Shown here one piece after another: positions 16,368 through 38,428 of a stretch of DNA of 64,000 nt. Below the pieces are notes generated by a model. That model saw only the letters and a program-made list of their open reading frames with translations, searched no databases and was not told where the DNA came from. A program made the position numbers and the translations under genes. The DNA comes from an uncultured Gammaproteobacteria bacterium. GTDB lineage: Bacteria > Patescibacteriota > Microgenomatia > Woykebacterales > RBG-16-39-9b. How positions within the stretch are numbered: position 1 is the stretch's first letter; each line of letters begins with the position of its first letter. Where the stretch lies: assembly GCA_965231125.1 (NCBI GenBank), contig OZ246414.1, positions 81,739-145,738 on the forward strand. Direction: 5' to 3'.

Positions 16368-18122
16368 CTATTTTATTACCACGTCAAAAAGGTTAGTTGT
16401 TAAAGAAAGGGTCCCGGGCGATCGCACGTGATAAATGGAACTGAAGAAAGAAGCGCCAAAAGTTTTTCCGGAAGGGTATTTAGAGCTGACAAAGGTCACC
16501 GATGAGGTGTGCCCTCTATTATCATAGCCGATAAATATACCACTATCATCAAGATTCCCAACGTCTTTTACACCCCGTGTATTTAGTTCGCTGATAACTT
16601 TACTACTACCCCAGCCAGCCGGGCCCAAACACCCATCGGTCGGTGAAAGGTGTTGATTGTAGCTACTGGATACTTGGGAAAGTAACGCCGCGTTGAAAAT
16701 ATCGGTAACCTGCGCCTTCGCTAGCCAAGGGAAATAGCTTCCACCGCAGCGGGAATTGCCCCACGCTTTATGAAACCATGGGGAAGATTTGTCATAAGCC
16801 CCCTTTGGCCAGCTACCGGAATAATCCTTAATACCGATAGCATAAGGTACGTTTGACCCCCAAACTTCTTGCGCCGACAACGTGTAGCCGCCAGCGGTTG
16901 AGGCGTACCAAGCCGTTATTGGTGAACCGCCGTAAGTAATAACAACTCCTTTAGTTGCTTTAACTGCACTGCACCAACGTGCGTTATAGGTACCGCTACA
17001 ATTGGCGTTGCTGGCATTATAAACTTGACAAGCCTGCGTTGTGCAAATTGCCGATCCTGGATTATTATTTAGCCAATTTAGGGCGTACGTGCGGGCGGCC
17101 ACTGCTTGGGCTTTTAAAGCCCCGCTCGGCCAGCTTCTTGGCATTTCGGAAATTCCCAGCAAATATTTATCTTCAAAGGAAATGGACCCGTAACCGGCAA
17201 CATTAATTTTAGACGGCACGGAATATTTTCCAACTGAAACTCCGGAATAGTACGCTTTCAAAATGGCTAAGTAGCTTTGTCCAGCAGCCGCGCGACCGTA
17301 AGCGCCGTATTGATTCATCCCAACTCGGTGCGGATAACCGTAGGAGGCAAATGCATAGGCTGGAGAAAACCCTGCGTTCGGCAGCGGTGTAGATGGTGGT
17401 GCTTGGTCCCCAATAGTTTGGTTTTCTTTGGCAGCGGCCAATTTCTTCGCAATTAGCTCTTTTTGTTTTTCTGTTAAGTTTTTCAAGTTGGAATTTATCT
17501 GGGCGAGTTTGCCTTGCAGGGCATTTTGTTGGTTGTTGACATAGTAATATTGAGAGGTAGTAGCGGCTAGTTGACTTGCAATTCTGGCGGCCGCCGTCTC
17601 TAAATCCTTTTTATCCAAGGCAATTTGGGCACGGGTTTCTTCGGCTAGTGCGATTTCTTTGTTCACATCTTTGATCAAATCCTCACTTTCACCTACAACC
17701 TTTTCCTGATAAACGGAAAGGGCAGTAAAATTCTGGAAATCGGCGCTTGCTAAGAAAAGCTCGAGCCCGGCGTTCGGCGGGTTCATGTAAAGGGCTCTTA
17801 TTTGTTCGTCTCTAATTTTAGTAAGGAAAGCTAAAGTCTCCTTTTTCTGGGAAAGATCCTTTTCGATCCTTTCCAAACTTTTCCGCACAGAAGCTACTTT
17901 CTTATTAGCTGCGGCCAACTGCGCTTGGGTTCCATAAATTGTGTTGGAAAGATAGGTTATATCTTTCCTTATTTGAGAGAGATCTGCCTGAGTTTGAGAA
18001 TAATCAGATTTGTTTTTATCAATGCCCTTCTGAACATCAAGCAGATCATCCGCTTTTACACGGGAAATGAAGGCACTGAATATCAGTAAACCGAAGAAAG
18101 AAATTAGGACAGCCTTTTTCAT
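16368..18122 (-). CDS. secreted coiled-coil protein with SpoIID/LytB-like peptidoglycan-remodelling domain
   Basis: 584 aa. Signal peptide, a coiled coil of about 230 aa, then ALKAQAVAARTYAL...WYASTAGGYT typical of SpoIID-like domains. Confidence 0.65.
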   Translation of the reverse strand: MKKAVLISFFGLLIFSAFISRVKADDLLDVQKGIDKNKSDYSQTQADLSQIRKDITYLSNTIYGTQAQLAAANKKVASVRKSLERIEKDLSQKKETLAFLTKIRDEQIRALYMNPPNAGLELFLASADFQNFTALSVYQEKVVGESEDLIKDVNKEIALAEETRAQIALDKKDLETAAARIASQLAATTSQYYYVNNQQNALQGKLAQINSNLKNLTEKQKELIAKKLAAAKENQTIGDQAPPSTPLPNAGFSPAYAFASYGYPHRVGMNQYGAYGRAAAGQSYLAILKAYYSGVSVGKYSVPSKINVAGYGSISFEDKYLLGISEMPRSWPSGALKAQAVAARTYALNWLNNNPGSAICTTQACQVYNASNANCSGTYNARWCSAVKATKGVVITYGGSPITAWYASTAGGYTLSAQEVWGSNVPYAIGIKDYSGSWPKGAYDKSSPWFHKAWGNSRCGGSYFPWLAKAQVTDIFNAALLSQVSSSYNQHLSPTDGCLGPAGWGSSKVISELNTRGVKDVGNLDDSGIFIGYDNRGHTSSVTFVSSKYPSGKTFGASFFSSIYHVRSPGTLSLTTNLFDVVIK

Positions 18123-18223
18123 GGACTAATTATACTTCAACCCAAAGAGAACTCAAAATTTCCAGGGCTAATTTCTATTTCCCAACTTGTCTCTTGTCAC
18201 TTGTTACTTACTGGCTGATAAGT

Positions 18224-18259: not shown

Positions 18260-19333
18260 ATGTCCTTGCCCAAAACCAAGATACTGTTTTTACCCGTATC
18301 GCTCCTATTAATAGCTTTTTACCTTACTTTTTTCATTTCCCCCGCATACGCTGGGTGCAATATAACCACCCCAGAGGGCGATTATTTCACTCCAGGTACT
18401 GCTATTAACTTTAAAATAACAGGTGTATTACCAAACCACAGTATAAAACTTGATCTTATTCAAGTCCACGGCGGTAATACTATCGATACAAAAACGCTCA
18501 CATCAGATCAAAACGGGGAAGCGAGTTTCACCTATAACGCTCCACCGGCGTTGGGAGATTATGTATGGATAGCTGACAACGATCCGAGAGATTGTACACC
18601 TGGCATCGGCAGTTCCCCTGGATTTACTGTTTCTAATCAAAGCTCTGGGGGTATTAATTTTGTAACTTTCCCGGCGCAAGTCGATAATGGGCGAACAACC
18701 ATAAGTATTAAAGTCACCGGCCTAGACCCAAATAGCTGTTATATAGTAAAAAAGGTTGACGGTTTTACCGGCAATATAGTAACCCAACATAACAGCCCCA
18801 TCGACAACGTCTGTCAGGATTTTACACAACTAGGTATGACGATAATTAAAAGCGACGATCAAGGTGCCCTCCAAATTGAAAATATCTGCGAAAATATGGA
18901 AGGCGCAAGAACCGATTGCACTAATCCTTTTGACGCCAATAAAACTTACTCTTTCCAAGTATATAAGTTCAAGTCTGGTTGTCATGTTATTGATCTACTA
19001 GATTGTTTTACAAAGGTCGGTGATCCCCTAAGTTTTACTGTCTCCAAAAGTATCAAATTTCCTCCAACAGAAGATCGAGGGAAAGAACTGTCAGGAGATA
19101 CTCGCAAATTTGTAAATACACTTGTTAGTTTCGGCATCGGGATTGCTGGAGGAGTCGCGTTTTTACTACTCATATACGGTGGGTTTAAATTTATCTTTAG
19201 CCTAGGCAATCCTGAAGCAGTGCAGCAGGGAAGGGAAATTATAACCGCTGCTCTAATTGGTCTAATTGTGGTTGTTTTTTCAGTTTTTCTTTTACGATTA
19301 GTCGGGATAAGTATTTTAGGTCTACCCTTATGA
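18260..19333 (+). CDS. secreted Ig-like-domain protein with C-terminal VirB2/TrbC-like two-TM pilin module
   Basis: Start MSLPKTKILFL with signal peptide ..SPAYA. The C-terminus GVAFLLLIYGGFKFIFSLGNPEAVQQGREIITAALIGLIVVVFSVFLL matches the module shared by 6 genes here. Confidence 0.6.
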   Translation: MSLPKTKILFLPVSLLLIAFYLTFFISPAYAGCNITTPEGDYFTPGTAINFKITGVLPNHSIKLDLIQVHGGNTIDTKTLTSDQNGEASFTYNAPPALGDYVWIADNDPRDCTPGIGSSPGFTVSNQSSGGINFVTFPAQVDNGRTTISIKVTGLDPNSCYIVKKVDGFTGNIVTQHNSPIDNVCQDFTQLGMTIIKSDDQGALQIENICENMEGARTDCTNPFDANKTYSFQVYKFKSGCHVIDLLDCFTKVGDPLSFTVSKSIKFPPTEDRGKELSGDTRKFVNTLVSFGIGIAGGVAFLLLIYGGFKFIFSLGNPEAVQQGREIITAALIGLIVVVFSVFLLRLVGISILGLPL

Positions 19334-20772
19334 GAACACCAACCTCAAGGAGAATTTTATCTTTTCTAGCCTTAGTCCTTGCCCTGCTTATTTTGAATCT
19401 AAATCAAACGTCTGGTCACAGAGTTTATGCGGCTGATCCTTGTCCCGTAGCGTTTCCCGCTTTTGACGGTACTGAGGGAACTACTACTACCGCCGATGGA
19501 GGGATAATAAAATCTTCCAACCCAATTCCAGAGGGTGCAAGTATTAAGGTTTTTTATAAAGCGTCAAGCGCTGTTCAATCCCAATCCCAACCAAATGATT
19601 GGATAGTAAGGGTAGATAGCGATATTGGTACAAGTGAGGCCCTAAGTGATGTGACCGTAGGGCCTCCTAATCCAGAACATTTGTGGTCCGCTTCGCTTGG
19701 TGCTACTATCCCATCTGGTGATCATTCCGTTTCGCTTATTTACCGCCCTACTGGAACTGTATGCGACACCCAAGGTTTCCACGTTTCGCTAACAGCTGAT
19801 TCTTCGAAGGGAATTTTTTCTGGTATTCTAGATCCTCTTCACGGGCGTTTTTCTAGCTTTGGGGAAATTGCCTCAAAACTTGCACCTTTTATACTGGCTC
19901 TTGGTGGAATGGTTGCTTTTCTCTTCCTTATCTGGGGTGGTATTAAATACATGCTGTCTCAAGGAGACCCAAAAGCAGTAACATCCGCCCGCAGCACAAT
20001 TGTTTCCGCCATAATTGGTTTAATAATACTGGCCTCCGTTTTTGTAATTCTCCAGCTCATAAACCTCATATTCAAAATTCCGGTGTTAGGCGCAACTTCG
20101 AACCAAGTGTTTGCCGCTAACTGTTCTTACCAACTATCAACTAATCAGATCGCCTACAACGGATCATTCAATGTAACAACCACTGTCCAAGGTAGTAATT
20201 ATTACACAATATCTTTCAATCCTGGTAACAATAACAAGATATTTATGGCCAACATTGCTGAAACATCCCACACCGAAACTATAAACATAGGTACCTTTTA
20301 CACCAACCCTCCTACTCAGATTACAGTGACAGTAGGACATGGGATTCCCTCCCAACATCCCGCGCCGTGTGATTTGCAAGGGAGTAATGAAGTAACCATA
20401 ACCCCTGCTCCCAACCCAACCGGGGGAAACAATAACGACGGTAACGACAACAGTACAACTGCGAAAGGTGGAATAAACATCGGAGATGCCTTCAAATTCG
20501 GAACTAAAGGTGTCAAAGACGTGTTTCCAAACTTTGGGGTGTTATTAACTAGTGTGGTTAATTTCGCTATAGCCGCAGCCGGTTTAATTTTCTTCTTCAT
20601 GCTAGTTTGGGGCGGCATGCGCTATATGCTTGCTAGAGGTGACGACAAACTAATCGTGGACGCAAGACAAACAGTCACCAATGCGGTGATAGGTCTCTTG
20701 ATAGTTGTTGCTTCTTTCGCGATAATTAAGTTAATAGCTTTAGCAACCGGGGCTCATATTTCTATTTTTTAA
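19330..20772 (+). CDS. secreted protein carrying two VirB2/TrbC-like two-TM pilin modules
   Basis: 480 aa. Module 1 at about nt 19858-20080 (LIWGGIKYMLSQGDPKAVTSARSTIVSAIIGLIIL). Module 2 at about nt 20521-20772 (LVWGGMRYMLARGDDKLIVDARQTVTNAVIGLLIVV). Confidence 0.6.
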   Translation: MRTPTSRRILSFLALVLALLILNLNQTSGHRVYAADPCPVAFPAFDGTEGTTTTADGGIIKSSNPIPEGASIKVFYKASSAVQSQSQPNDWIVRVDSDIGTSEALSDVTVGPPNPEHLWSASLGATIPSGDHSVSLIYRPTGTVCDTQGFHVSLTADSSKGIFSGILDPLHGRFSSFGEIASKLAPFILALGGMVAFLFLIWGGIKYMLSQGDPKAVTSARSTIVSAIIGLIILASVFVILQLINLIFKIPVLGATSNQVFAANCSYQLSTNQIAYNGSFNVTTTVQGSNYYTISFNPGNNNKIFMANIAETSHTETINIGTFYTNPPTQITVTVGHGIPSQHPAPCDLQGSNEVTITPAPNPTGGNNNDGNDNSTTAKGGINIGDAFKFGTKGVKDVFPNFGVLLTSVVNFAIAAAGLIFFFMLVWGGMRYMLARGDDKLIVDARQTVTNAVIGLLIVVASFAIIKLIALATGAHISIF

Positions 20773-20774
20773 TT

Positions 20775-21104
20775 ATGCCAGCTTCTAGTGCATCTTCAAG
20801 TAGTTCAAGTCTGCCGGTAATCGGTCATATAAAGCCGCCTTCTGGTTTCCCCATCGATCCTAACACTATTATCTCCGGCCTAATAAGCTTGATAATAGGG
20901 TTTGCTGGGTTAGTTTTCTTTGCAATGCTCGTTATTGGTGGGTTTCGGTATTTAACTGCCGGTGGGGACGAAAAAGCCGCCCAGGAAGCCCGTAAAACTC
21001 TAACCAACGCCGGGGTTGGGTTGATTATAATTGTGGCCGCGTTTTTAATCGCCCAACTACTCTTTCAAGTGTTTGGGCTGGAATCTTTAGTTAAGATAGG
21101 CTAA
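20775..21104 (+). CDS. VirB2/TrbC-like pilin-type protein
   Basis: 109 aa. Ser-rich N-terminus, then LVIGGFRYLTAGGDEKAAQEARKTLTNAGVGLIIIVAAF. Confidence 0.6.
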   Translation: MPASSASSSSSSLPVIGHIKPPSGFPIDPNTIISGLISLIIGFAGLVFFAMLVIGGFRYLTAGGDEKAAQEARKTLTNAGVGLIIIVAAFLIAQLLFQVFGLESLVKIG

Positions 21105-21108: not shown

Positions 21109-21591
21109 ATGTTTAAAAAATTTCTGCTGGGCAACGGATTAAACAAAATATCAACTTTCCTGATGACCGGGGGCATTTTGTTTCCGATAATTAACAGCTT
21201 GGCTGTAAAAACAATTTACGCAGCGCCAACAACTCCTACATCCGCTACCGCCAGCTCTACCGTCAGCGCAAGTTCGTCGGCAACCTTCCATATTCCAAAC
21301 CTAATCCCTTTTAAAAATCTTGGTGATCTTTTCCAAGTCCTTTTGAGTCTGGCTTTTTTTGCAGCGGGGCTCGCTTTTTTTCTCAATTTAATTGTCGGCG
21401 GCTTTCAGTGGATTTCCTCTGGTGGAGACCCCAAAGCCTTGCAAACCGCCAGAGGCCGAATAATGAACGCTTTTGTAGGATTGATTATAGTGGTTGCCGC
21501 CTACGCAATTGCCTTAATAGTCCAAACTGTGTTGGGAATAAGAATAGTCAGTGGTTTTTGTATTCGTTTGCCGGGCGGAACATGTCCTTGA
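21109..21591 (+). CDS. VirB2/TrbC-like pilin-type protein
   Basis: 160 aa. Signal/TM, Ser/Thr/Ala-rich linker, LIVGGFQWISSGGDPKALQTARGRIMNAFVGLIIVVAAY, C-terminal FCIRLPGGTCP. Confidence 0.6.
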   Translation: MFKKFLLGNGLNKISTFLMTGGILFPIINSLAVKTIYAAPTTPTSATASSTVSASSSATFHIPNLIPFKNLGDLFQVLLSLAFFAAGLAFFLNLIVGGFQWISSGGDPKALQTARGRIMNAFVGLIIVVAAYAIALIVQTVLGIRIVSGFCIRLPGGTCP

Positions 21592-21664: not shown

Positions 21665-22063
21665 ATGAAAAAACTCGTCTCTGCCACAATAGTAAGTGTT
21701 GCTACATTCTTTAGTTTTGCGGGAGCTGCATTCGCGGTGGATTCCCCAAATATACGGGGTTTTGATTCAAACAGCATTCCTTTCCCAAACTTAGGTAAGT
21801 TGATAAGTAATATTCTCTCGTTATTATTTTTCTTCGCCGCCCTACTTGCATTTCTTTTTATTATCTTAGGTGGTATCCAATGGATTACTGCCGGTGGTGA
21901 CAAAGTCGCTGCTCAATCGGCCCGAGATAGAATTACAGCGGCGGTCATTGGTTTGGTAATAGTAGTCGCCGCTTTCGCCATAACCGTTATTCTCTCGAAG
22001 GTCTTGGGAATTAATCTCTTCGAATACAACTTCCCCGGCACATCCACTACCGCCGGCGCCTAA
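21665..22063 (+). CDS. VirB2/TrbC-like pilin-type protein
   Basis: 132 aa. Signal peptide ..AGAAFA, then IILGGIQWITAGGDKVAAQSARDRITAAVIGLVIVVAAF. Confidence 0.6.
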   Translation: MKKLVSATIVSVATFFSFAGAAFAVDSPNIRGFDSNSIPFPNLGKLISNILSLLFFFAALLAFLFIILGGIQWITAGGDKVAAQSARDRITAAVIGLVIVVAAFAITVILSKVLGINLFEYNFPGTSTTAGA

Positions 22064-22076: not shown

Positions 22077-23255
22077 CTAATTTGAGAATCCGGTAGTTCC
22101 AGTAAGAATAGTAAAGTAGATTTTTGAGACAGGTAGACCAGTAAGTAATGGGTAGTAAAAAGCAAACAGCCCAAAGCACGAAATTATAAACCCCGCAAGT
22201 AAAAACTTTTTCCCCTCAAAATTCTCTTCTATCATTTTACTAAGTAAAATTACCCCAAACGGCAGCGCTGGGAGCAGATAATACTGTAGAGTGTTGTGGT
22301 AAGCGAAAAACCAAGGGAGCCAAAAGCAGGCAAAGGCTCCCAGCAAAAAGAGCTTTTCAGACGTAAAGTCTCTTTTTTTTATCACCAAAATAATTGCCCC
22401 CAGAATTCCCCAAAAAATGGCGGGGTTAAAGAGAAAAATAACGCTGCGGACTGTGTTTCCGACAGTTTGACCCAAATAAGGAAGCGGTGGATCCAAAAAC
22501 CAAAGCCAGGGAGGATAACCCAAGTTGTCTTTGGATTTTAGAAAAAGATGGTAATTAGCCATTTGCCACTGCAGGTGAAAAAGGCTGTCAAGAGTGTGGT
22601 TTTTTAAATAAAAACTATACGAGGCGAAGTAGACTAACAAAACAACTGTTATTAACTGAGCAATTTTCAACAGGGAACGGGGTTTCTTCTTAAGAAGATA
22701 AAATCCCAAAGCAAAAATTAGTAAAAATAGACCGCTCCATTTTGACGATATTGCCAGCCCAAAGAAAAACCCGCTTAATAATAAATCTTTGGAACTTTCG
22801 CTTTTAAGAAATTTCCAAAAGAAATAGCCAGCTGCCAGGCTAAAAGCAGCCACGTAAATTTCGATAGTACCGAGCCGTGAACTTACAAACCAACCAAACT
22901 CGGCTGTTAAAAAGAGGCTTGCCAAAACTGGAATAAACTTTCCGCCAAACATTTTTTCCGCCAGCAGGTAAATAAATACGACCCCCAAACTCCCGACTAA
23001 AACTTCTGGTATTCGCCAACCCCAAACGTTGTCACCAAAAACATGGATACTTGCCGCCATAAAAAGTTTTGCGACTGGCGGGTGTTGGAAATTAGCTAAA
23101 AAATCCCCGTGCAGGTAGGCACGGGCCGCCGGTATGTAAAAAGCGCCCTCGTCAAAATAAGCGCTTTGGGGAGAATTTAGTAGAAAAAGTTTCGTCAGAA
23201 AGTTAAAGAGAAAAATCAGCGTAAGGAATACAAAGTCAAAACGAGCAAATCTCAT
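22077..23255 (-). CDS. polyprenyl-phosphate-dependent glycosyltransferase (GT39/PMT_2, ArnT-like)
   Basis: 392 aa, about 10 TM segments. First-loop YFDEGAFY acidic motif typical of PMT/ArnT-type enzymes. Confidence 0.65.
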   Translation of the reverse strand: MRFARFDFVFLTLIFLFNFLTKLFLLNSPQSAYFDEGAFYIPAARAYLHGDFLANFQHPPVAKLFMAASIHVFGDNVWGWRIPEVLVGSLGVVFIYLLAEKMFGGKFIPVLASLFLTAEFGWFVSSRLGTIEIYVAAFSLAAGYFFWKFLKSESSKDLLLSGFFFGLAISSKWSGLFLLIFALGFYLLKKKPRSLLKIAQLITVVLLVYFASYSFYLKNHTLDSLFHLQWQMANYHLFLKSKDNLGYPPWLWFLDPPLPYLGQTVGNTVRSVIFLFNPAIFWGILGAIILVIKKRDFTSEKLFLLGAFACFWLPWFFAYHNTLQYYLLPALPFGVILLSKMIEENFEGKKFLLAGFIISCFGLFAFYYPLLTGLPVSKIYFTILTGTTGFSN

Positions 23256-29609: not shown

Positions 29610-32600
29610 CTAAGCGGCTACAATCACAAATCCGCTATTGGGTTCTGGCACTGCGCTCGTAACTAGGTTGTTGTGGCCCATATAGACCATCTTGATGTAC
29701 CTGATGTAACGCTGCTTCTCCTCCTCTCCTATGTTCCTAATCGCTTCCCGTAGAACGTTATTGATTTGGTCCCAGCGATATTTGTCGACGATCATTTCCG
29801 CAAGCTTCATAGAGTATCGGGAGTCAATTTTTGCCCAGCGGGCAATAGTGACAGTCAGGCGATCAACGTCCATCTCCCTCATCGCCTTGCCTCTCTGGAC
29901 TCCATCTTGCTCTTTGAACCTAGAGAGCCACCAACTATTACCCTTTAGGCTCTTGGCGCTTTCCTTAACGAACTCGAGTTCGTCTGTCTCACTCCAGTGA
30001 CCAAGCTCCCGCGCCCTGGCTTTACCGAGACTGTTGTCGAACACTCGGTTCCACCAAACCCATTCCCCATCTCGAACAAATTTGGACTCTGACTCAGCAT
30101 CGTCCCCGATTCGGAAGGGGTAACCCTCGCTGATCCAGGAACCGTAGGTGCCTCCGGAGAAAGCGTGGGCCCGACCCAAAAGGGTGAGCTCCATCTCCCT
30201 CTCTTCCTGGTAAGCGATCGCTGGTCTGCGCAGATCCCAAATCATTCGCTCCATACCGATCCGGCGACCACCAGGAAGCCCGAGATCGAATCTGCCCTTC
30301 GGAATTACGATGGTGGGTAGGCCTTCGGTGTTCCGCCGGACTACGGGGACCACCTGCTGCACCCGGTTAGTCATCGCTTCTTGCAAAGCGTACTGAACCC
30401 TAGCCCGCTTTGGCTCCTCGGGCTGGTGAGCCCACATTGCGTACATGAAGTTACGCGCTGCAGTGGCGTTGTCGTAGTTCACCCGAATGAAGCTATCATA
30501 GCCGTACGTATTTGGGTTGGACAAGCGCACGTTAAGCACCGCCAACGCATTCATCTGACCTAGAATCGCCTCGTTCTGCAGCCAAACGGTGATAGGGTCT
30601 CGGACGGCAAACTCGATGGTACGGGTCCAATCGTCCTCGTCTCGGTAGTTGCGTACCCTGCTGGTGAACTCCTTAACTAGCGTGTCAAAGTCGGGCATCG
30701 CCCCATCACCAGCCGCCGAGTTTAGCCCTCGCTCGCGCTTGAGCTGATCCAAGGCGACTGCCATTGCCTCGGCGTACAAAGTTGCCTGAGCACCGTCGTG
30801 AGGCATCTTCTGCCAGGGTTCCTTGAAGAACCAGGCCCAGTCAAGTAGCGAGCGACGAAGCTCAACCCTTTCCTGGGACACCTCCACGAAACGCTCAAAT
30901 ATCTCGTTTCCGAGAACGTACGCTTCCCTTTCGTCCCGAGTCGGTTCTTTGATCTCCGAGAAGACAGCCTGCCATTCCTCATGAACAAGCTTGTCCGGTA
31001 TCTCTTCTGGACTAGGGATCGGCGCAAAAGCCTCCCCCCGATGCAGTTTGCCCAGAAGGTGGGCCTGGAACCGAGCGCACCGATGCAGAATCATGTACCG
31101 CCGGTCGCAGGTATAATCGATGCTCTCCCACTCACCACCGAAGTTGTTCTGGACATACCGAGCTACGTCCGCATCTTCCATATTCCAACCCTCACGTTTG
31201 GTCCGCATAGAGCGGGCCATCTGCCAGAATTGAATACGGTGCAGACGCTTTCTGCGTCGCTCGATATTTTCCGCCCTGTAGCGGAAGGTGGAGTGATCCA
31301 CCACTGGTTCCCAGCTACCGTAGGAAGGCTGGTAAACTAGCTTCCCTGTCTCCTTATCAACCTTGGATTTACCAGGACGGTATACCCAAGTCACGGTGGA
31401 TGGTTGCTCCACGTACACCGCGAGCTGCACGAGCTCCTTGAGAGCCTGTGCCTGGCTGACTGGATCCGAGGTTTGCGCCCCAAAAATATCCGCCAGAAGC
31501 CAAGGCTCGTTCATCTGCTCGCTTGGATACGAACGGTCCATGTTTTGGTCCACGAAGCTATCCTGATCGCGGAGCCAACGTGCCCACCATTTCTTTAGGG
31601 CTTTGCGACCCTTTGTCTTTTCGAGCTCTATCATCTCTTCTTCGGTGGGTATGCGGAATCCGCTAACTACCTCACCAGTTTTAGGATCGCGTTTCTGCTT
31701 CCGACGGACCGTTTCTTCGAAGTATTTCCACGTCGCCCCGTAACCGAAGTACTCGGTTCCATCCTCATCCGTATAGTAGAGGATTTTCTCCGAACACACT
31801 TTGTGAGCGAGCATGGTGCGGCCTTTTATGTTCAGGTCGCCCACGTCGATTTCGTACTTCTCAGTGTGCGGATTGTAGTGCAGGCCTTCGGGAAATTCCT
31901 GAAAGACCCCTTCACGAACGTTTGCACCATTGCGGTAATACTCCGCTTCCACGCGGCTGCGGAGTGCCTCTTTTTCAGCTTCAGACAGCTCTTCGAGCTC
32001 CCCGGTTTCGGGGTTCTCCACGAAGTAATACCACTGATCTGGTTCCTTCGGGCGAAGCTTCAGCCGAAGCGCGCGGCGGTAGACGTTGTCTTTCTCCCGC
32101 CATTCATCCATTGGTGCGTTGGGTTTGTGCGGTGGAGGGACTTTATTCAACCCTTCGTTGTTCACTGGAAGGTCTCCAGCTCCAACAGCAGGGTAGAACA
32201 CTCGATAGCGAGTAAAGTCCTCTCTCTTCGCGATATCCTCCGCGTGCAACTTGCGCATAACTTCCAGCCGGGAAGAGCCAGGGTTCTTTTTGAGAGCCCG
32301 ACGCATCCGGTGGTAGCTACGCGACACACGCCGAATTTCCCGGTGGTACATCCAGTTAGGATAGCGTCCACCGGGACCAATGTCTTGACGAACTCTAGCG
32401 TGGTTCAGCTCGGGCGAAAGAACGAACATGTTCGTGTCGATACGAACCTGCCCAAGAGAAACCTCAGAGTTCTCTATTTCTTGTTGAAGTTTCTGTACTT
32501 CTTCCCACATGTGCTTTTGTTTTACGGTGTCCGAGATTCCAAACGAGAGAGTGCTGATGAGAAACGGGTTTTTTCCCTTACGCTCAATAGCGTAGCATAG

Positions 32601-32945
32601 AATCGGTTCCCGCTCTCCCATTGGGAATTCGGGCTTTCCGTCTCTGCCAACCCGCCATACCCCGTCCCTTGGTACAACGACTCGCTCCTTAGGCTTGGCT
32701 GTAACCACTTCCATGAAGAAGCGGCGGCCACCCCTCTGCCCGTTGATCTGGAAACCTTGTTCCGAATACTGCGTCTCAGCCAGAGCTTTGAGCTCCTGCT
32801 CTAGCGATGGGAGACCAGCGTATGCCCCCGATCCATATTCGGCTGGGGTTATTACCAGATCCGGTATTCTACCGAACCTAGTTCCGGGAAGAGCTTCCTC
32901 GAACTCTTCGCCATAACCGTCACCGTCCCCATTACCATTTGTCAT
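29610..32945 (-). CDS. large GC-rich orphan protein (1111 aa, no recognisable domains)
   Basis: Uninterrupted ORF. Best start is ATG 32945 (MTNGNGDGDGYGEEF) with GAGGAGGA 8 nt upstream. No signal peptide or TM. Arg/Glu/Trp-rich. Confidence 0.7.
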   Translation of the reverse strand: MTNGNGDGDGYGEEFEEALPGTRFGRIPDLVITPAEYGSGAYAGLPSLEQELKALAETQYSEQGFQINGQRGGRRFFMEVVTAKPKERVVVPRDGVWRVGRDGKPEFPMGEREPILCYAIERKGKNPFLISTLSFGISDTVKQKHMWEEVQKLQQEIENSEVSLGQVRIDTNMFVLSPELNHARVRQDIGPGGRYPNWMYHREIRRVSRSYHRMRRALKKNPGSSRLEVMRKLHAEDIAKREDFTRYRVFYPAVGAGDLPVNNEGLNKVPPPHKPNAPMDEWREKDNVYRRALRLKLRPKEPDQWYYFVENPETGELEELSEAEKEALRSRVEAEYYRNGANVREGVFQEFPEGLHYNPHTEKYEIDVGDLNIKGRTMLAHKVCSEKILYYTDEDGTEYFGYGATWKYFEETVRRKQKRDPKTGEVVSGFRIPTEEEMIELEKTKGRKALKKWWARWLRDQDSFVDQNMDRSYPSEQMNEPWLLADIFGAQTSDPVSQAQALKELVQLAVYVEQPSTVTWVYRPGKSKVDKETGKLVYQPSYGSWEPVVDHSTFRYRAENIERRRKRLHRIQFWQMARSMRTKREGWNMEDADVARYVQNNFGGEWESIDYTCDRRYMILHRCARFQAHLLGKLHRGEAFAPIPSPEEIPDKLVHEEWQAVFSEIKEPTRDEREAYVLGNEIFERFVEVSQERVELRRSLLDWAWFFKEPWQKMPHDGAQATLYAEAMAVALDQLKRERGLNSAAGDGAMPDFDTLVKEFTSRVRNYRDEDDWTRTIEFAVRDPITVWLQNEAILGQMNALAVLNVRLSNPNTYGYDSFIRVNYDNATAARNFMYAMWAHQPEEPKRARVQYALQEAMTNRVQQVVPVVRRNTEGLPTIVIPKGRFDLGLPGGRRIGMERMIWDLRRPAIAYQEEREMELTLLGRAHAFSGGTYGSWISEGYPFRIGDDAESESKFVRDGEWVWWNRVFDNSLGKARARELGHWSETDELEFVKESAKSLKGNSWWLSRFKEQDGVQRGKAMREMDVDRLTVTIARWAKIDSRYSMKLAEMIVDKYRWDQINNVLREAIRNIGEEEKQRYIRYIKMVYMGHNNLVTSAVPEPNSGFVIVAA

Positions 32946-33086
32946 TTGTGTTTCCTCCTCGCTGTTGAACCACCTCGACTTAGTCGAGGGTGCTGACCGG
33001 CAAACTTTCTTTGTGAGAACTGTTTCCCACTTTGGTGTTTGCTGGATCAGCAGCAACACCAAGGGGCGGCCGAAGGCCAGTTTTAA

Positions 33087-33113
33087 ATTATAAGACGCGG
33101 GACATATGTCCAA
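33087..33113 (-). promoter_or_regulatory. candidate promoter (TTGGAC-N15-TATAAT) overlapping palindrome ggacatatgtcc
   Basis: Minus-strand TATAAT is the reverse complement of 33087-33092. TTGGAC is the reverse complement of 33108-33113. The spacer is short (15 nt). Confidence 0.3.
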
Positions 33114-33204
33114 AACACTAGAATCTTACATCCTAAATCTGACATCCATCCGTCCCTCGGTGTTACCTATACTAAGGAGGGGTCCTGGTTTTCACCGGGA
33201 CTTC

Positions 33205-33233
33205 GACTTGTCTAACGACAAGTCTTGTTTTTT
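33205..33233 (+). terminator. plus-strand terminator-like hairpin with no obvious upstream plus-strand gene
   Basis: gacttgtc-taac-gacaagtc perfect 8-bp stem followed by ttgtttttt. A second hairpin plus T-rich tract lies at 33260-33290. Confidence 0.45.
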
Positions 33234-33336
33234 GCTTGTTACCTCAATTTTTCGGCGTACTACAGGTTTAATCCTGTAGTTCTTTTGATCTTTATTCGTT
33301 TTTTAAGGTGCACATTAGCTTTTCGAAAATAGATCG

Positions 33337-33399
33337 CTCCGTAACCAAATCCAAGTGATTTGGGTACTCTCGCGTTCTGTGCTTTAAAAAAGCTAAGGG
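33337..33399. repeat. right copy of the inverted repeat (33-mer plus extended imperfect arm)
   Basis: ctccgtaaccaaatccaagtgatttgggtactc (33337-33369) is the reverse complement of 26465-26497 with 1 mismatch. The arm continues ...gttctgtgct..agctaaggg, matching 26427-26457. Confidence 0.65.
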
Positions 33400-33817
33400 C
33401 TCTGGGTGACAAATTTCTTATCAACCAGAGCCCACCTTCGGGGTCCTATGAAGGGACACCTCAACTCGGAGGTGGCTCTGGATTATTTAGTTTAATTTTA
33501 AGTTCGCCCTTACTCATTTTTTCTAGCCTCTACTGACTGGCCGAATTTTAGCATAACTTAGCTTAAATGTCAACTATAAGTCATTTTGTAACTTCGAAAC
33601 CTGCGAGCTCTTGGTTTCTCAGGTACTCTCACGTCTCGCGCTAGGCGTCTTAACGCCTAGCTAAGAGCGCATCGGTTTTTATTCGCGCAGTACGATACAG
33701 TTTGACTCGGTTGCTTTTAGCCTCCCCATGAGCCATAATAATCCCTACAATAGTCGTAAAAAGCTATTTTTCGGCGAAGGATCAGCGAAGCGAGCCGAAG
33801 TATTGTAACCAAAAGTT

Positions 33818-34342
33818 ATGCAACAGCATCCTGTCCCACAGAACATAACAAGTTTTGAATTTAAGCTAGTTGGGTTTCTGACGATTAAGCAATTCGGCTA
33901 TCTTGCCGCTGCCGGAATTTTTTCCTTTGTCTTTTTCATTTCTCCAATACCGACCCTTTTAAAAACTATCGTTATTACTCCTTTTGCCGCAGCCGGACTT
34001 GCCTTTGCTTTTGCTAACATAAACGGTCTCTCGTTTGACAAGTGGATCGTTGCCTTTATTCACTCGGTCTATTCCCCGTCAAGAAGGGTTTGGCACAAAG
34101 TGCCGAAGGAGATAAGTTTTCTCGCGCCAAATTTTTCCTACTATCTCAAGCGGCCGCCTACCCAACAAAAAATTGCCAGTGGCGATCGGACTCGTTTAGA
34201 AAAATATCTTGCGCAGTTGCGAAACCAGCGTTTTAATTCTAATCTCGATGTTTTTGAGGAAATGCGCCTTTCAAAAATTGACTTTAGGGCGACTGTTCCT
34301 CACTTTACAACCGTAGACTCCCAAAGGGATGAAGGCGACTGA
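33818..34342 (+). CDS. PrgI-like (VirB3 analogue) membrane protein
   Basis: 174 aa. The N-terminus HPVPQNITSFEFKLVGFLTIKQFGYLAAAG followed by two TM segments is the pattern I associate with PrgI family proteins of Gram-positive-type T4SS. Confidence 0.55.
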   Translation: MQQHPVPQNITSFEFKLVGFLTIKQFGYLAAAGIFSFVFFISPIPTLLKTIVITPFAAAGLAFAFANINGLSFDKWIVAFIHSVYSPSRRVWHKVPKEISFLAPNFSYYLKRPPTQQKIASGDRTRLEKYLAQLRNQRFNSNLDVFEEMRLSKIDFRATVPHFTTVDSQRDEGD

Positions 34343-35825
34343 GATGGCAGAACCCAACCAAGAAAAGACAGCGGCATATTTTCCTGAGATACCGACAGAT
34401 TTGCCGGAGAACGTCCCGTCTTATCCTGGCAAAAATCTACCCCGCGCCTATAAACCGGCGGCACCCTCCCGCGACGTTACTCACGGGCTGTTGGAGGGGA
34501 CGCGGAGTTTTGCCTCGGAAGTAAATTTTGATCCAGTTACAACTTTAAACCTGCCGGATAAAAACGTCTACGTGCGGCCGGTTAAAAACCTAAAATCCCG
34601 GGATATCACTCCATTACCTCTCAACGGCCCATTAAGTTTGCCTTCCAAAGGGGAGAAGATTTTTGATCTCTCGGCCGACTTTCAACGTCAGATTGAAGCG
34701 CGACTTTCTTATATTATGAATCAGTATGAAACCAAATCTAACCCTAACTTACCTGATTTAGCTCCACCACCTAACCTTAGTCCGGAGACTCCCAGTCCGG
34801 CGGAAACTGCTCCTGCCGCTGCCCAACCTGGGCAAGCTGTCCAGCGCCCGGTTATCAGCCCAGAAATTAGCGCGGCGGCCCAAGTCCCTCAAAGAGCACT
34901 GGAGACGCCACCTGCTCAACCCCAGAGTCCGGTTCCATATCAATCAGCCAATCGGTTACCTTCTGACCAAGAAGCTCTGCTTGATATTCTAACTAGACTA
35001 GAGAGGCAAATCCGAGAGTTGGAGATTCAAAAAAACGCCGCCCAAGCAAGGGTTGTTGAGCTAACCAACAAATATCAATCGCAAATTTTGGCGCTGGCAA
35101 AAAACCAAGAAGGTTTTAGCTCTGTTATTGAGCAGCTGAAAAATCAACTTGTCGAGGAGCAAAAAAAGAAACTGGCCGGGGACGCCATGGTCAACACTAT
35201 TAAAACAGAATCCCAAGTCGAAATTCAAAGACTAAAGATTGAAAGAGACTCTCTTCTTTCCCAGCTAAAAGAGGCCCAGACCAAAATTTCTGATCTACAA
35301 CAGACCGCGTCTAAATTCCCAGTTTCAGAAATACAAGTATCCGAACTTAAGGCCCGCCTGGCCCAGGTGGAGAGGGAAAGATCTGATTCCGAGGAAAAGA
35401 TAATGAAGTTGCAAAGTTTGGTGGACGATTTAAGGACGGGTTCCCGTGTGGCTGAGGAAGAAAGACACGTTATCACTGCTCAGGCGGTACCAGTAGAGTC
35501 TCTGACCACGGCAAAAATCGTGTCCCCGGCCCCAGCGTTTGGAAAAATGGCGCCTCCACTTACCACCATTCCTAACGTTGTTAACGGTATCATCAAAGAT
35601 CGCGCTGGCCTGCTCTTAACTGATGTCATAATTGTCGTAAAAGATGAGGCGAGTAACCCTGTAAGGGCCTTAAAATCGAATAAAATTGGTCAATTTGCTA
35701 TCTCAACACCACTACCAACCGGCACTTACACTATGGAACTTGAAAAAGAGGGTCAAGAATTTGATCTTGTCCAAATAAAATTGGAAGGAAAAGTAATGCC
35801 ACCCGTGGAAATAAAATCTCGGTAA
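34329..35825 (+). CDS. Pro-rich / coiled-coil protein with C-terminal carboxypeptidase-regulatory-like beta-sandwich
   Basis: 498 aa. Pro-rich spacer, coiled coil of about 150 aa, C-terminal VNGIIKDRAGLLLTDVIIVVKD..GQFAISTPLPTGTYTMELEKEG. Alternative start at ATG 34344. Confidence 0.5.
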   Translation: MKATEMAEPNQEKTAAYFPEIPTDLPENVPSYPGKNLPRAYKPAAPSRDVTHGLLEGTRSFASEVNFDPVTTLNLPDKNVYVRPVKNLKSRDITPLPLNGPLSLPSKGEKIFDLSADFQRQIEARLSYIMNQYETKSNPNLPDLAPPPNLSPETPSPAETAPAAAQPGQAVQRPVISPEISAAAQVPQRALETPPAQPQSPVPYQSANRLPSDQEALLDILTRLERQIRELEIQKNAAQARVVELTNKYQSQILALAKNQEGFSSVIEQLKNQLVEEQKKKLAGDAMVNTIKTESQVEIQRLKIERDSLLSQLKEAQTKISDLQQTASKFPVSEIQVSELKARLAQVERERSDSEEKIMKLQSLVDDLRTGSRVAEEERHVITAQAVPVESLTTAKIVSPAPAFGKMAPPLTTIPNVVNGIIKDRAGLLLTDVIIVVKDEASNPVRALKSNKIGQFAISTPLPTGTYTMELEKEGQEFDLVQIKLEGKVMPPVEIKSR

Positions 35826-35847: not shown

Positions 35848-36564
35848 ATGGCCAACAAAAAAATTTACACAACTCAAGAACATTTAGATATCGATGACGT
35901 TAGAGACAATTTGGCCGTTCTAAAAAACGGGGAGGCGGTCGCGATTATTCAGACAAACGCGATCAACTTTGACCTTTTAAGTGAAAGGGAGCAGGACGCA
36001 ATGATCTTTGCCTACGCTGGCTTGCTAAACTCCCTCACGTTTCCGATACAAGTTTTGGTGAGATCAAAACGTTTAGATCTTTCCAATTATTTACAGTATC
36101 TTGCTCTTTACCGGCGGCAAGCCAAAAACCCACTTTTGGTTGCCCAAATGGATAAGTACGCCTCTTTTATTAAGGATTTAGTTGCAAGGAATGAGGTTTT
36201 GGATAAGAGATTTTATATAGTTGTGCCTTATCTAGCTATTAGCCTTACTCAATTAAAAAGTCTAGGCGGCGGCCTTTTAGGTAAAAAACCGCGAGGCACA
36301 AATCGCTGGAGCACCATTGAGAAAGCTAAAGTTAATCTTGAGCCAAAAATCGAACACATCGTTAAACAGCTTGCTCGGATTGGAATTAAAGCCAAACAGC
36401 TTACCACTGAAGAATTAGTCGAGCTTTTTTACGACTACTACAACCCCGAGGTAGCCAGGGAACAGAAAGCAGCTCTTTCCACCTCGGAGTACACAACTCC
36501 AATTGTGGAACCGGCGGTAAGCCCAATTTTAGAGCAGTCACAAGGAGACACGAATGCAACTTAA
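35848..36564 (+). CDS. hypothetical T4SS-associated protein (238 aa)
   Basis: The ORF overlaps the VirB4-like gene start by 11 nt. No family recognised with confidence. Confidence 0.45.
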   Translation: MANKKIYTTQEHLDIDDVRDNLAVLKNGEAVAIIQTNAINFDLLSEREQDAMIFAYAGLLNSLTFPIQVLVRSKRLDLSNYLQYLALYRRQAKNPLLVAQMDKYASFIKDLVARNEVLDKRFYIVVPYLAISLTQLKSLGGGLLGKKPRGTNRWSTIEKAKVNLEPKIEHIVKQLARIGIKAKQLTTEELVELFYDYYNPEVAREQKAALSTSEYTTPIVEPAVSPILEQSQGDTNAT

Positions 36565-38428
36565 TCCTTTTAAAAAAAGGGAAAAGGTTGACCCGGTAGA
36601 AGCAGAACTGGCTCAAACCCGAGCAAAAGTGGCCAATGTTCTCGGTAGGGGAATGACAGATGTAAAGGACGTGATTGCTCCACCGGCCATTGAAATCGAC
36701 TTTGATTACTTAAGAATTGGTGAGTTGTACTTCCGCACATTATTTATCACTGGCTACCCTCGCTTTGTCGGTGCTAATTGGCTGGCTCAAATTATAAATT
36801 TTGACCATACCCTTGATATTTCCTTCTACTACTACCCCGTTGAATCGAAGGGAATACTTGACGATCTGCGGCGAAAAATCGCCGAGATGGAGGCTACGAT
36901 TGAAAGCGACCTAGAGGCAGGTAGAGTCTTAGATCCTGGGGTCCGAATTGCTTTAGAGGATGCTCAAGCCCTCCAGGAACAGCTAACCGCTGGTATCGAA
37001 CGCTTCTTCCAGTTTTCTTTCTACATAACCATACCCGCTTACTCCTTAGAAGAACTCAACTCTGTTACCAAACAAGTAGAAGCGGCCCTTGGGTCTCTTT
37101 TGGTCGTCTCCAAGCACGCGACGCTACAACAAGAACAGGCTTTTCAATCTGTCTTACCTACCTTCACCGATAAACTTTTGGTGACTCGGAACATGGACAC
37201 GACTTCTTTGGCTACAACTTTTCCTTTTGTTTCTAGCGAGCTAACTGCTAATGAAGGGGTTATGTACGGCATTAACGAACACAATGGATCTTTGGTCATT
37301 TTTGACCGCTTTAGCCTGGAAAATGCAAACTGCGTCGTCTTTGCAAAATCCGGAGCCGGAAAAAGCTACTTAGTTAAACTGGAGACTTTGCGTCAATTAA
37401 TGTTTGGCACTGAAGTTTTAGTTATCGATCCAGAAAACGAGTATCAAGCCTTAGCCGAGGCGATTGGAGGAGAATATATGGAATTTAAGGCCGAGTCCGG
37501 AATAAAAATAAACCCCTTCGATCTTTCCGGTATCTACCAGCAAGGAGAAAACGAACTAGGTTTAAAAATTTTGGCTCTTCACTCCCTTTTCCGAATTATG
37601 ATGGGTCAGCTAACGCCAATGGAAGATGCTGTTTTAGACAGAGCCTTGGTTGCTACCTATAAATTAAAGGGTATAACTCCAGACCCGGCCACCCAAACAA
37701 GACAGCCGCCGATTATGGAGGACCTTTACAATATCTTACTTAACATGGCGGAGCCGGAAGCTAAGGGAATGGCAACTCGTCTGGAAAAATTCATTCGGGG
37801 TTCTTTATCCGGTGTATTTAATGAGCAAAGCAATATTAACCTTAGAAATACCTTTACTGTTTTTTCTATCCGTGATATGGAGGACGAACTGCGCCCAATT
37901 GCAATGTTCATCGTCTTAGACTTTATCTGGACGAGGATCAAAAGAAATCTTAAAAAGCGGGTTCTTGTGGTAGACGAGGCTTGGTATTTAATGAAGTACC
38001 CTGACTCAGCTGCTTTCATGTACTCCATCGCAAAAAGAGCCCGTAAATACTTTTTAGGGGTGACAACAATAACTCAAGACGTCGAAGACTTTCTTTCTGG
38101 AGATTACGGTAAGGCAATTGTTACTAACTCATCTATGCAATTTCTATTAAAGCAGTCACCGGCGGCGATAGATGCAGTTACTGATATTTTTTATTTGTCC
38201 GAGGGGGAGAGAAATTTACTGCTTTCTGCCGAGATCGGCGAGGGCCTTTTCTTTGCTGGCCCTAACCACGTGGCTATTAGGGTTCAGGCTGCACCACACG
38301 AACACGGGTTAATTACTTCAAACCCAGCTGAGCTTGTTGAGAGTAACCAGCCCTCAAATATTTCCGCGCCAAACAGCCCCCCGACAGAAGAAACTACTTA
38401 TCCGGGGTCTACCCCAAACCAACTCTAA
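36554..38428 (+). CDS. VirB4/TraC/PrgJ-like type IV secretion ATPase
   Basis: 624 aa. Walker A FAKSGAGKSY, Walker B RVLVVDEAW, and a VirB4-like N-terminal domain (FRTLFITGYPRFVGANWL). Confidence 0.85.
   Translation: MQLNPFKKREKVDPVEAELAQTRAKVANVLGRGMTDVKDVIAPPAIEIDFDYLRIGELYFRTLFITGYPRFVGANWLAQIINFDHTLDISFYYYPVESKGILDDLRRKIAEMEATIESDLEAGRVLDPGVRIALEDAQALQEQLTAGIERFFQFSFYITIPAYSLEELNSVTKQVEAALGSLLVVSKHATLQQEQAFQSVLPTFTDKLLVTRNMDTTSLATTFPFVSSELTANEGVMYGINEHNGSLVIFDRFSLENANCVVFAKSGAGKSYLVKLETLRQLMFGTEVLVIDPENEYQALAEAIGGEYMEFKAESGIKINPFDLSGIYQQGENELGLKILALHSLFRIMMGQLTPMEDAVLDRALVATYKLKGITPDPATQTRQPPIMEDLYNILLNMAEPEAKGMATRLEKFIRGSLSGVFNEQSNINLRNTFTVFSIRDMEDELRPIAMFIVLDFIWTRIKRNLKKRVLVVDEAWYLMKYPDSAAFMYSIAKRARKYFLGVTTITQDVEDFLSGDYGKAIVTNSSMQFLLKQSPAAIDAVTDIFYLSEGERNLLLSAEIGEGLFFAGPNHVAIRVQAAPHEHGLITSNPAELVESNQPSNISAPNSPPTEETTYPGSTPNQL

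Follow-up and report, generated by a model that had tools for sequence, protein, structure and literature searches.

What does a 22-kb locus that carries seven pilin-like modules next to dnaA do for its owner: does it move DNA by conjugation or does it serve another purpose, and why would it need so many pilins? The locus occupies positions 16368-38428 of the 64-kb stretch that was analysed (the window), which is part of a contig of ~915 kb, and its open reading frames (ORFs) were found where the original prediction had placed them. The best relatives of its VirB4 (85% identity) belong to Woykebacteria, a lineage within the Microgenomates group, and judging by sequence the source is an uncultured, ultra-small Candidatus Woykebacteria-like member of this group (Patescibacteria/CPR). 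We propose, with a probability of roughly 0.7, that the locus encodes a resident, origin-proximal type IV secretion system (T4SS) of the Patescibacteria kind, which derives from Gram-positive MPF_FATA conjugation machinery and uses specialised pilins for host contact or exchange.

The predicted VirB4-like ATPase (36554..38428, plus strand) proved to be of the Gram-positive CD1110/MPF_FATA type: it scores 390.5 bits with NCBIfam conju_CD1110 (cut-off 325) and also matches P-loop_TraG (E 1.3e-27) and PDB 4AG5 (E 1.3e-53). Next to it, an ORF absent from the original gene list (35848..36564, plus strand) encodes a TrsD-like protein (NCBIfam TrsD E 2.4e-9; VirB4_plasma at positions 99-233; TraC-like by the precomputed PF26593 assignment), which occurs in 73 of 80 loci and, from its profile matches, is the putative equivalent of a detached VirB4 N-terminal domain. 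The expected PrgI/VirB3-like membrane protein (33818..34342, plus strand) matches Pfam PrgI at E 5.8e-12. The ORF that overlaps it (34329..35825, plus strand) encodes a Pro-rich linker, a coiled coil and a C-terminal CarboxypepD_reg-like beta-sandwich; the coiled coil predicted for this protein has SMC-like matches, but the predicted beta-sandwich is sub-threshold here (E 1.9e-4), though clear in 33 of 41 homologues. PrgI and CarboxypepD_reg form a single ORF in 32 of 41 relatives, and the overlapping protein is, by all appearances, the C-terminal portion of a long PrgI protein that has become detached. No component resembling VirB8 was recognised. With its VirB4 above the CD1110 cut-off, its TrsD-like and PrgI-like partners and no outer-membrane core, the locus resembles Gram-positive MPF_FATA systems (pCF10 Prg, pGO1 Trs, the CTn2 CD1110 family). 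Those encode a relaxase as well as a coupling protein and rely on surface adhesins, VirB2-type pilins being absent (PMC12102498, PMC12857230); the present locus, by contrast, lacks all of the DNA-processing genes and has seven pilin modules.

Blastn shows that patches of the 872-bp divergent intergenic region in front of prgI (32946..33817) are conserved in the related loci L001-L003. The minus strand of this region carries a promoter-like TTGACA-17-TAAAAT (33573-33545), its plus strand has three terminator-like hairpins, and no Rfam family matches it. Beyond it lies another ORF missed by the original prediction (29610..32945, minus strand), whose soluble, highly charged, Trp-rich product of 1,111 aa has no detectable fold relative; its GC content is 0.56 against ~0.44 around it, and it is raised in the closest relatives (Woykebacteria-like loci) too. 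The polytopic membrane protein of 576 aa (27540..29270, plus strand; called from its TM profile) has an N-terminal ectodomain of ~200 aa followed by 6-7 TM segments and is syntenic in 32 relatives' loci. It had been described as VirB6-like. It is indeed polytopic and stands at the VirB6 position, but no VirB6/TrbL profile matches it, and Pfam and PDB searches yield nothing either, even when 12 homologues are included (NCBIfam CD3337_EF1877 E 0.044; hhalign against MPF_T VirB6, P 0.009), so we call it VirB6-like by position, synteny and topology only.

Several envelope proteins accompany this machinery. The SpoIID-like cell-wall hydrolase (16368..18122, minus strand; Pfam SpoIID E 1.6e-19, as predicted) has a signal anchor and an N-terminal coiled coil, its gene is divergent from the pilin array and holds the same position in L081 and L083, and it is a candidate wall-opening enzyme. 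Inside the array, on the opposite strand, the predicted GT39 glycosyltransferase is found as a PMT-type GT-C enzyme (GT39/GT83-like; 22077..23255, minus strand; PMT_2 E 3.8e-23, PMT E 1.4e-12), in the same place as in L081, L082 and L083. The membrane-bound SLT+HExxH hydrolase of the prediction (24907..26364, minus strand) has one TM segment (residues 54-72), an SLT-like N-terminal part and a C-terminal part with an HESTH motif, but its SLT match is sub-threshold (E 0.045); the L001/L081 protein shares 54% identity with residues 78-331 but has Peptidase_M23 as its C-terminal part. We regard the protein of this locus as a putative peptidoglycan hydrolase and a candidate VirB1 analogue. Also missing from the original list were a membrane-anchored Ig-like Big_5 protein (23743..24390, minus strand; Big_5 E 4.9e-10, N-terminal TM segment), whose gene is syntenic in L081, and two small hypothetical proteins: a membrane-anchored one (24393..24956, minus strand; TM segment at residues 24-42) and a secreted one with a signal peptide (26545..27501, plus strand). 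Neither has a Pfam or NCBIfam match, and for the secreted one there is no tblastn match in 83 relatives' loci.

The pilin array consists, as predicted, of six genes with seven two-TM modules. Six proteins exceed the 26.6-bit cut-off of PF18895 (T4SS_pilin; E 4e-7 to 6.4e-15), and a search of the 64 kb with an HMM made from the modules recovers exactly these seven, in six ORFs, and no others. Every module comprises a pair of hydrophobic helices and a short loop that bears K/R. Pairwise identity among the seven is 27-53% (mean 35%); G33, G42, R51, A57, G60 and L61 are invariant, and the motif proposed originally is about right, module 1 and the last module deviating at some positions. The fusion of pilins to large N-terminal domains is seen in two of the six proteins. 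The long pilin m1 (357 aa; 18260..19333 of ORF 18194-19333, plus strand, start taken from P0149; PF18895 E 3.7e-8) has a signal peptide, a Cys-rich N-terminal ectodomain of ~250 aa and a C-terminal module. The pilin m2 + m3 (480 aa; 19330..20772, plus strand), with two PF18895 stretches, runs from a signal peptide through an ectodomain, a module and a second ectodomain to a second module; the fusion recurs with a shorter linker in L081, is split into two genes in L083, and has the tandem form also seen in fragments P0003-P0005. The remaining genes, all on the plus strand, encode short pilins: m4 (109 aa; 20775..21104; E 2.5e-12), with a Ser-rich N-terminal tail and no signal peptide; m5 (160 aa; 21109..21591; 27.2 bits against the cut-off of 26.6, module HMM E 7.8e-34), with a signal peptide followed by a Ser/Thr-rich tail; m6 (132 aa; 21665..22063; E 4e-7) and m7 (134 aa; 23342..23746; E 9.2e-12), both with signal peptides. 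The Ser/Thr-rich tails are confined to m4 and m5 of this genome and absent from their orthologues.

The label 'VirB2/TrbC-like' derives from the Pfam family name, the topology and the context; direct similarity to VirB2 profiles is weak. Profile-profile comparison with real VirB2 gave a score of 26.9, which none of 60 column shuffles and none of 60 block shuffles surpassed, and the similarity runs from the leader over helix 1 into the beginning of the loop. PF04956 has no match at E <= 0.1 among the module proteins, and no solved VirB2 in the PDB matches the modules in sequence. The AlphaFold2 model of m4 is a helical hairpin (H29-61 and H66-100, pLDDT 73), a generic fold with no specific match to conjugative pilins, which does not discriminate. 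Together these similarities hint at homology with VirB2/TrbC. The modules resemble the VirB2/TrbC pilins of Gram-negative T4SSs (Agrobacterium T-pilus) in small size, leader, two hydrophobic helices, short basic loop and VirB3/VirB4 neighbours. We know of no VirB2 with a large N-terminal domain and of no tandem pilin. It is conceivable, though unlikely, that PF18895 modules are not fibre subunits but two-helix membrane anchors or translocon parts, the long forms of which hold secreted domains at the surface. Two of the six proteins have the large ectodomains expected of an anchor, the generic fold and the lack of a match to solved VirB2 fit as well, and no pilus of PF18895 proteins is reported in the Patescibacteria T4SS literature cited here (PMC10633639, PMC12857230). 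However, the other four genes code for little but the module, which would be strange if it served only as an anchor, the weak profile signal leads to VirB2, the modules co-locate with VirB3/VirB4 phylum-wide (PMC12102498), and they form a fixed set of seven, more conserved than the neighbouring enzymes.

This conservation is seen in two relatives, L081 and L083, in which all seven modules have one-to-one positional orthologues (on-diagonal identity 56-86% and 46-75%, respectively; off-diagonal 18-56%; m6 is 86% identical to its L081 orthologue). The neighbours are less conserved (SpoIID 70% and 37%, PMT 53% and 36%, the polytopic protein 43% and 33%), and copy number, which the original prediction proposed to compare, is seven in each of the three genomes. 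Seven orthologous and well-conserved modules point to purifying selection on seven distinct roles rather than to turnover by duplication and loss, and conservation above that of the neighbouring enzymes, in a fixed set, suggests tight protein-protein packing; we infer that the modules are specialised, non-interchangeable subunits. Among 40 homologues of m1, identity is 44-84% in the module and 13-32% in the N-terminal domain, so that m1, at the level of sequence, couples a conserved module to a hypervariable N-terminal part. Interchangeable variants serving antigenic or host-range variation, which PMC12102498 suggests for Patescibacteria by analogy with the several divergent tandem VirB2-like genes of the non-conjugative host-interaction T4SS of Bartonella and Anaplasma, themselves interpreted in this way, would explain this hypervariability between genomes and the divergence of the paralogues, which average 25% identity in the published survey (PMC12102498). 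This explanation is improbable, since the paralogues here are fixed and orthologous, and variation is concentrated in the head of one subunit and not array-wide.

The chromosomal setting bears on the question of conjugation. Directly to the right of the locus, as predicted, are recF, dnaN and dnaA (38425..42448, minus strand; Pfam families of the called genes), which provide the origin context and lie outside the machine; the cumulative GC-skew minimum is at 38-40 kb of the window. The gene order SpoIID, pilins, PMT, pilin, Big_5, hydrolase, polytopic protein, large ORF, PrgI, coiled-coil protein, TrsD, VirB4, recF, dnaN, dnaA is kept among relatives, and dozens of Microgenomates genomes of varied relatedness have the locus at the same site beside dnaA. 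The original prediction had seen no VirD4 or relaxase, and indeed the 64-kb window yielded neither a relaxase nor a coupling protein, an integrase or a repeat-bounded island, although a coupling protein or relaxase may be encoded elsewhere in the ~915-kb genome. The scan covered, on either side of the locus, every ORF that reaches 200 aa apart from 3381-3986 and 11124-11762, two ORFs without a Pfam match, and all the others are housekeeping genes. The shared dnaA-side position and the absence of these genes from the window fit a machine that is resident rather than a conjugative element. That it is an ordinary ICE or integrated plasmid with relaxase and coupling protein just beyond the window is very improbable: its VirB4 family is typical of Gram-positive conjugative elements and 64 kb of the contig were covered, but the flanks are housekeeping genes (smpB, tmRNA, recF, dnaN, dnaA), GC is even except in the 1,111-aa ORF, and in the survey a relaxase gene lies close to virB4 in no more than 15 cases (PMC12102498).

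The system itself is not new: Patescibacteria T4SS have been described (Quinonero-Coronel et al. 2025, PMC12102498; Wang et al. 2023, PMC10633639), their architecture and essentiality are documented (PMC10633639, PMC12102498, PMC12857230), and the locus is a typical example of this pilin-rich, relaxase-less type. Published loci have arrays of 2-11 VirB2-like genes, commonest in Microgenomatia, in tandem or broken by a non-pilin gene (PMC12102498), as well as split TrsD and VirB4, PrgI, no relaxase nearby and an adjacent dnaA (PMC12102498, PMC10633639); coupling-protein homologues of the phylum are usually encoded far from virB4 (PMC12102498). The present locus shares the MPF_FATA-related VirB4, the separate TrsD-like protein, PrgI/VirB3, the PF18895 array, the lack of a nearby relaxase and the place beside dnaA/dnaN. 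Multiple pilins, no relaxase or VirD4 nearby and dnaN-dnaA adjacency, called unusual originally, are the published norm, and of the unusual features only the pilin-domain fusions are not. VirB6 is scarce in Microgenomatia according to the survey, whereas a conserved polytopic protein takes its position here. The main text of the survey (PMC12102498) is silent on pilin-domain fusions, two-module pilins and paralogue orthology between genomes, as well as on PMT and SpoIID genes as members of the locus and on the large ORF that precedes prgI. The only relative tested experimentally, the T4SS of Southlakia epibionticum ML1 (SEML1_0006-0019), is essential for epibiotic growth (PMC10633639, PMC12857230); ML1 belongs to Saccharimonadia and not to the Microgenomates group, and its hydrolases are downstream of virB4 (PMC12102498), whereas here they are upstream, beyond the pilin array.

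What the locus adds to the cited Patescibacteria T4SS literature is the one-to-one orthology of modules and their conservation above neighbours, m1 with its conserved module and hypervariable head, the two-module fusion gene, PrgI and the coiled-coil protein as a single ORF in most relatives, and the 1,111-aa soluble protein with its GC-rich gene, all of them unmentioned there. If the locus is the resident T4SS that we propose, the pilin modules would, like VirB2, insert in the membrane so that their two termini face outwards and their basic loop lies inside, and a VirB3/VirB4/VirB6-like platform would extract and polymerise them into a fibre or a wall-spanning conduit, for the passage of which the SpoIID-like and SLT-like enzymes would open the peptidoglycan. 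The seven modules would act as specialised, non-interchangeable subunits, and m1, with its outward-facing head, is probably the host-binding one. The homologous locus is indispensable, along with its pilin array, to the epibiotic growth of Saccharibacteria, which belong to another class (PMC10633639, PMC12857230), and by analogy the system of this Woykebacteria-like organism may serve contact or exchange with a host cell rather than conjugation.

[quoted passage not shown] The closest relatives of its VirB4 (up to 85% identity) are encoded by MAGs of Candidatus Woykebacteria, which lie within the Microgenomates group of Patescibacteria, and the window is matched almost exactly by a JGI metagenome contig and by Logan contigs. 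Southlakia epibionticum cannot grow as an epibiont without its Gram-positive-like T4SS, whose cluster has pilin genes in series and contains no recognisable relaxase or coupling protein (Wang et al. 2023, PMC10633639). In a survey of the phylum, the VirB4 proteins were described as a clade of their own, with MPF_FATA as its relative, TrsD as the commonest partner, VirB3 of the PrgI type and PF18895/VirB2-like pilins in 1,948 assemblies; relaxases were rare, and virB4 often adjoined dnaA and dnaN (Quinonero-Coronel et al. 2025, PMC12102498). A 2025 review repeats this picture (PMC12857230). The window locus has in common with these systems an MPF_FATA-related VirB4, a separate TrsD-like protein, PrgI, PF18895 pilins near virB4, and a chromosomal, dnaA-adjacent cluster free of relaxase and coupling protein within 64 kb. 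Relaxase and VirD4/TcpA coupling protein are both absent from the scanned ORFs of the 64-kb window, as had been predicted, and recF, dnaN and dnaA do adjoin the locus on the right. The two features had been called unusual, which they are not: since both are the norm in Patescibacteria, the locus is a further member of an already described system and not a new kind. A link to the newly reported CPR 'Pam' pilus was rejected, as the Pam pilins have an Ig fold, the system uses donor-strand exchange, and its genes lie in another genomic setting.

The locus includes an array of pilin genes (18194-23746), for which the prediction of seven two-transmembrane modules in six genes proved exact. Six proteins match Pfam family PF18895 (T4SS_pilin) at 27.2-55.4 bits against a gathering cut-off of 26.6, with two matched stretches in the 480-aa protein, and an HMM of the modules detects just seven of them, spread over six ORFs, with no further copy in the 64-kb window. 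The modules, 27-53% identical in pairwise comparisons, are built of two hydrophobic helices and a short loop bearing conserved G, D/N, K and R; hydropathy, alignment and a structural model (helices 29-61 and 66-100) give a leader, two hydrophobic helices and a short basic loop, the leader being missing from some short pilins. The predicted kinship with VirB2 is supported by Pfam family, topology and gene context. The main rival to the mechanism proposed below is that the modules are membrane anchors and not fibre subunits; we consider this rival rather unlikely. Direct comparisons with VirB2 gave weak results: no pilin protein matches PF04956 (VirB2/TrbC) at E <= 0.1, and a seven-module profile compared with PDB sequences finds no VirB2 or conjugative pilin. 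When eight annotated plasmid VirB2/TrbC proteins were compared with 84 CPR pilins by hhalign, the leader, helix 1 and the start of the loop were aligned with a probability of 26% (P 7e-4, score 26.9). Among the controls, shuffled columns scored 11.1 +/- 2.2 and shuffled blocks 18.6 +/- 2.8 (maximum 24); with 60 shuffles of each type, no control came up to 26.9. This weak profile signal is compatible with remote homology, and shared architecture could yield it as well.

The comparison of pilin copy number that had been proposed as a check gave seven modules in the window and in two related loci, L081 (8081-12980) and L083 (7698-12098). The same six genes are present in L081, whereas L083 has seven genes, with modules 2 and 3, fused in the window and in L081, on separate genes. 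The modules are one-to-one orthologues by position: identity between positional counterparts is 56-86% for L081 and 46-75% for L083, against 18-56% for all other pairings, and in the same relatives the modules are better conserved than SpoIID, the PMT-type glycosyltransferase, Big_5 and the polytopic protein. Because of this one-to-one orthology, together with a conservation that exceeds that of the neighbours, the sequences argue for seven distinct pilin roles under purifying selection, and they argue against antigenic variation within the array. The first pilin (18260-19333, plus strand) has 40 homologues of 211-441 aa with one C-terminal module each; this module is 44-84% identical across them, while the N-terminal ectodomain is only 13-32% identical and essentially unalignable. 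A conserved anchor with a hypervariable head is the pattern expected of a host-binding subunit, which makes the head of the first pilin a candidate for host specificity. Given a cleaved leader and a VirB2-like topology, an extracellular position is predicted for this head and for the two ectodomains of the two-module protein.

Inside the array, at a position conserved in relatives, lies the predicted glycosyltransferase gene (22077-23255; Pfam PMT_2/PMT, E 3.8e-23). We rejected Ser/Thr-rich pilin tails as its conserved targets, as orthologues do not keep these tails. At a T6/T5 tract (window 22600), a 1-nt difference in length splits the gene in L092, a JGI assembly of the same population as the window; neither the window nor a Logan contig shows this break, which may reflect misassembly or phase variation.

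The prgI-to-virB4 operon contains the predicted VirB4-like ATPase (624 aa; PDB 4AG5, E 1.3e-53), whose relation to the MPF_FATA class follows from a profile match (NCBIfam conju_CD1110, 390.5 bits against a cut-off of 325). It is adjoined by a TrsD-like ORF (35848-36564) that the original prediction had missed and that is found in 73 of 80 relatives; its TrsD match (E 2.4e-9) lies under NCBIfam's own cut-off, and PF26593 (TraC-like) is on record for it. This ORF aligns with VirB4 positions 99-233 and the 624-aa VirB4 with CD1110 positions 179-734, and by these alignments the TrsD-like ORF corresponds to the N-terminal domain absent from the 624-aa protein. The predicted PrgI-like protein is well supported (Pfam PrgI, E 5.8e-12, 46.4 bits against a cut-off of 27). 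Its gene overlaps by 14 nt the ORF of the 498-aa coiled-coil/CarboxypepD_reg protein (33818-35825, plus strand), in which the beta-sandwich that had been proposed is sub-threshold in the window copy but clear in 33 of 41 homologues. In 32 of 41 Microgenomates relatives one ORF encodes both proteins; the split into overlapping ORFs is confined to the window and the relatives nearest to it. Because of this shared ORF, the 498-aa protein belongs to the VirB3 module. The 576-aa protein described as VirB6-like is indeed polytopic and conserved in location, but it matches no VirB6/TrbL model: together with 11 homologues, both as a profile of 12 and in scans of each member, it has no match in Pfam, NCBIfam or the PDB, and its comparison with five MPF_T VirB6 proteins by hhalign was weak (probability 4.5%, P 0.009, 41 columns). 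With these searches negative or weak, its assignment to VirB6 is positional, in agreement with the survey, in which VirB6 was hard to find in Microgenomatia (PMC12102498).

Two enzymes acting on the cell wall had been predicted. The SpoIID-like hydrolase matches Pfam SpoIID (E 1.6e-19). The 485-aa SLT/HExxH hydrolase (24907-26364, minus strand) does have a transmembrane anchor and an HESTH motif, but its SLT match is sub-threshold (E 0.045). Its N-terminal, SLT-like part is common to relatives; the C-terminal domain is Peptidase_M23 in L081 (14615-15958) and L083 (13222-14679), in place of which the window protein has an HESTH-bearing domain with no family assigned. Three genes between those of the last pilin and the polytopic protein had been missed: one encodes a Big_5 protein, the others small proteins that are membrane-bound or secreted. 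A secreted protein of 296-318 aa with no family assigned (26545-27501, plus strand) is encoded directly upstream of the VirB6-like gene, and no counterpart was detected in the loci of 83 fetched relatives.

Also missed was a gene for a 1,111-aa protein on the opposite strand (29610-32945), whose start was set by two related protein records (P0001/P0002). A foreign origin of this high-GC ORF was rejected for Woykebacteria-like relatives, where the counterparts are also raised in GC, and not for all loci; the GC bias accompanies a composition rich in Arg, Glu, Gly and Trp. The divergent intergenic region next to it (32946-33817) is, at 872 bp, unusually long for a small genome, and patches of it are kept in three related loci (L001-L003). 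At consensus level only, its minus strand has a promoter-like site close to the consensus (33573-33545), some 600 nt before the large ORF, and its plus strand has three hairpins that resemble terminators. An RNA element in the region was rejected, with no Rfam match.

The locus is a resident chromosomal machine and not an island. The minimum of the cumulative GC skew lies at 38-40 kb, and the locus thus abuts the replication origin. No integrase was found in the window, and relatives show synteny of both locus and flanks: in the fetched loci the order is VirB6-like, large ORF, PrgI, coiled-coil, TrsD, VirB4, recF, dnaN, dnaA, and in two Woykebacteria-related genomes the left half has the order smpB, ~640-aa protein, DUF5657, bPH, SpoIID, pilins with PMT, Big_5, hydrolase. 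Integration of an island at the tmRNA gene was rejected, as the ssrA 3' end points away from the locus and the synteny from smpB to SpoIID is conserved. The other window ORFs of at least 200 aa are housekeeping genes (DnaG, sigma-70, LeuRS, GroEL, TsaD, YidC, L25, solute-binding proteins, ComFC-like), except for ORFs 3381-3986 and 11124-11762, which have no Pfam match. Just left of the locus (9361-13610) lie six tRNA genes (four Ser, two Arg), a ComFC-like gene (12036-12728; DZR_2 and Pribosyltran), the tmRNA (12750-13112) and smpB; the conserved ~636-640-aa, DUF5657-like and bPH proteins, encoded from smpB to SpoIID, are possible parts of the system. On the plus strand to the left of the origin (skew minimum taken here at 38-42 kb) lie the pilin array, the VirB6-like gene and the prgI-to-virB4 operon, all read towards the origin and thus against the direction of replication; recF, dnaN and dnaA run with it.

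From the observed parts list, its conservation and the patterns of orthology and conservation, a mechanism may be proposed. The pilins would insert in the membrane with the loop inside, and the VirB3/TrsD/VirB4 platform, together with the polytopic protein, would extract and polymerise them, while the SpoIID-like and SLT-like enzymes would open the cell wall. The variable head would be displayed at the surface, the PMT enzyme might glycosylate pilins or other surface parts, and the role would be host interaction, not conjugation. We tentatively suggest, with a probability of roughly 0.3, that the T4SS of Woykebacteria assembles seven specialised paralogues, a fixed set, into a heteromeric VirB2-type structure, one of them with a hypervariable host-recognition head and two covalently paired, and that the soluble ~1,100-aa protein, which is positionally conserved, fast-evolving, without a known fold and encoded between the VirB6-like gene and prgI, serves as a dedicated substrate or takes the place of the missing coupling and DNA-processing functions. 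To our knowledge, no T4SS pilus of such complexity has been described.

Few machines have been shown to be essential to Patescibacteria living as epibionts, and the T4SS, whose role there has yet to be explained, is one of them (PMC11665869). That all seven paralogues are non-redundant and well conserved speaks for a structured, heteromeric assembly, and the pilin with a conserved module and a variable head is a candidate determinant of host specificity. The fusion of PrgI to its tail and the large orphan protein hint at uncharacterised core parts or cargo in the Microgenomates machine, and the comparison with relatives thus yields testable leads for those who study the T4SS of Patescibacteria.
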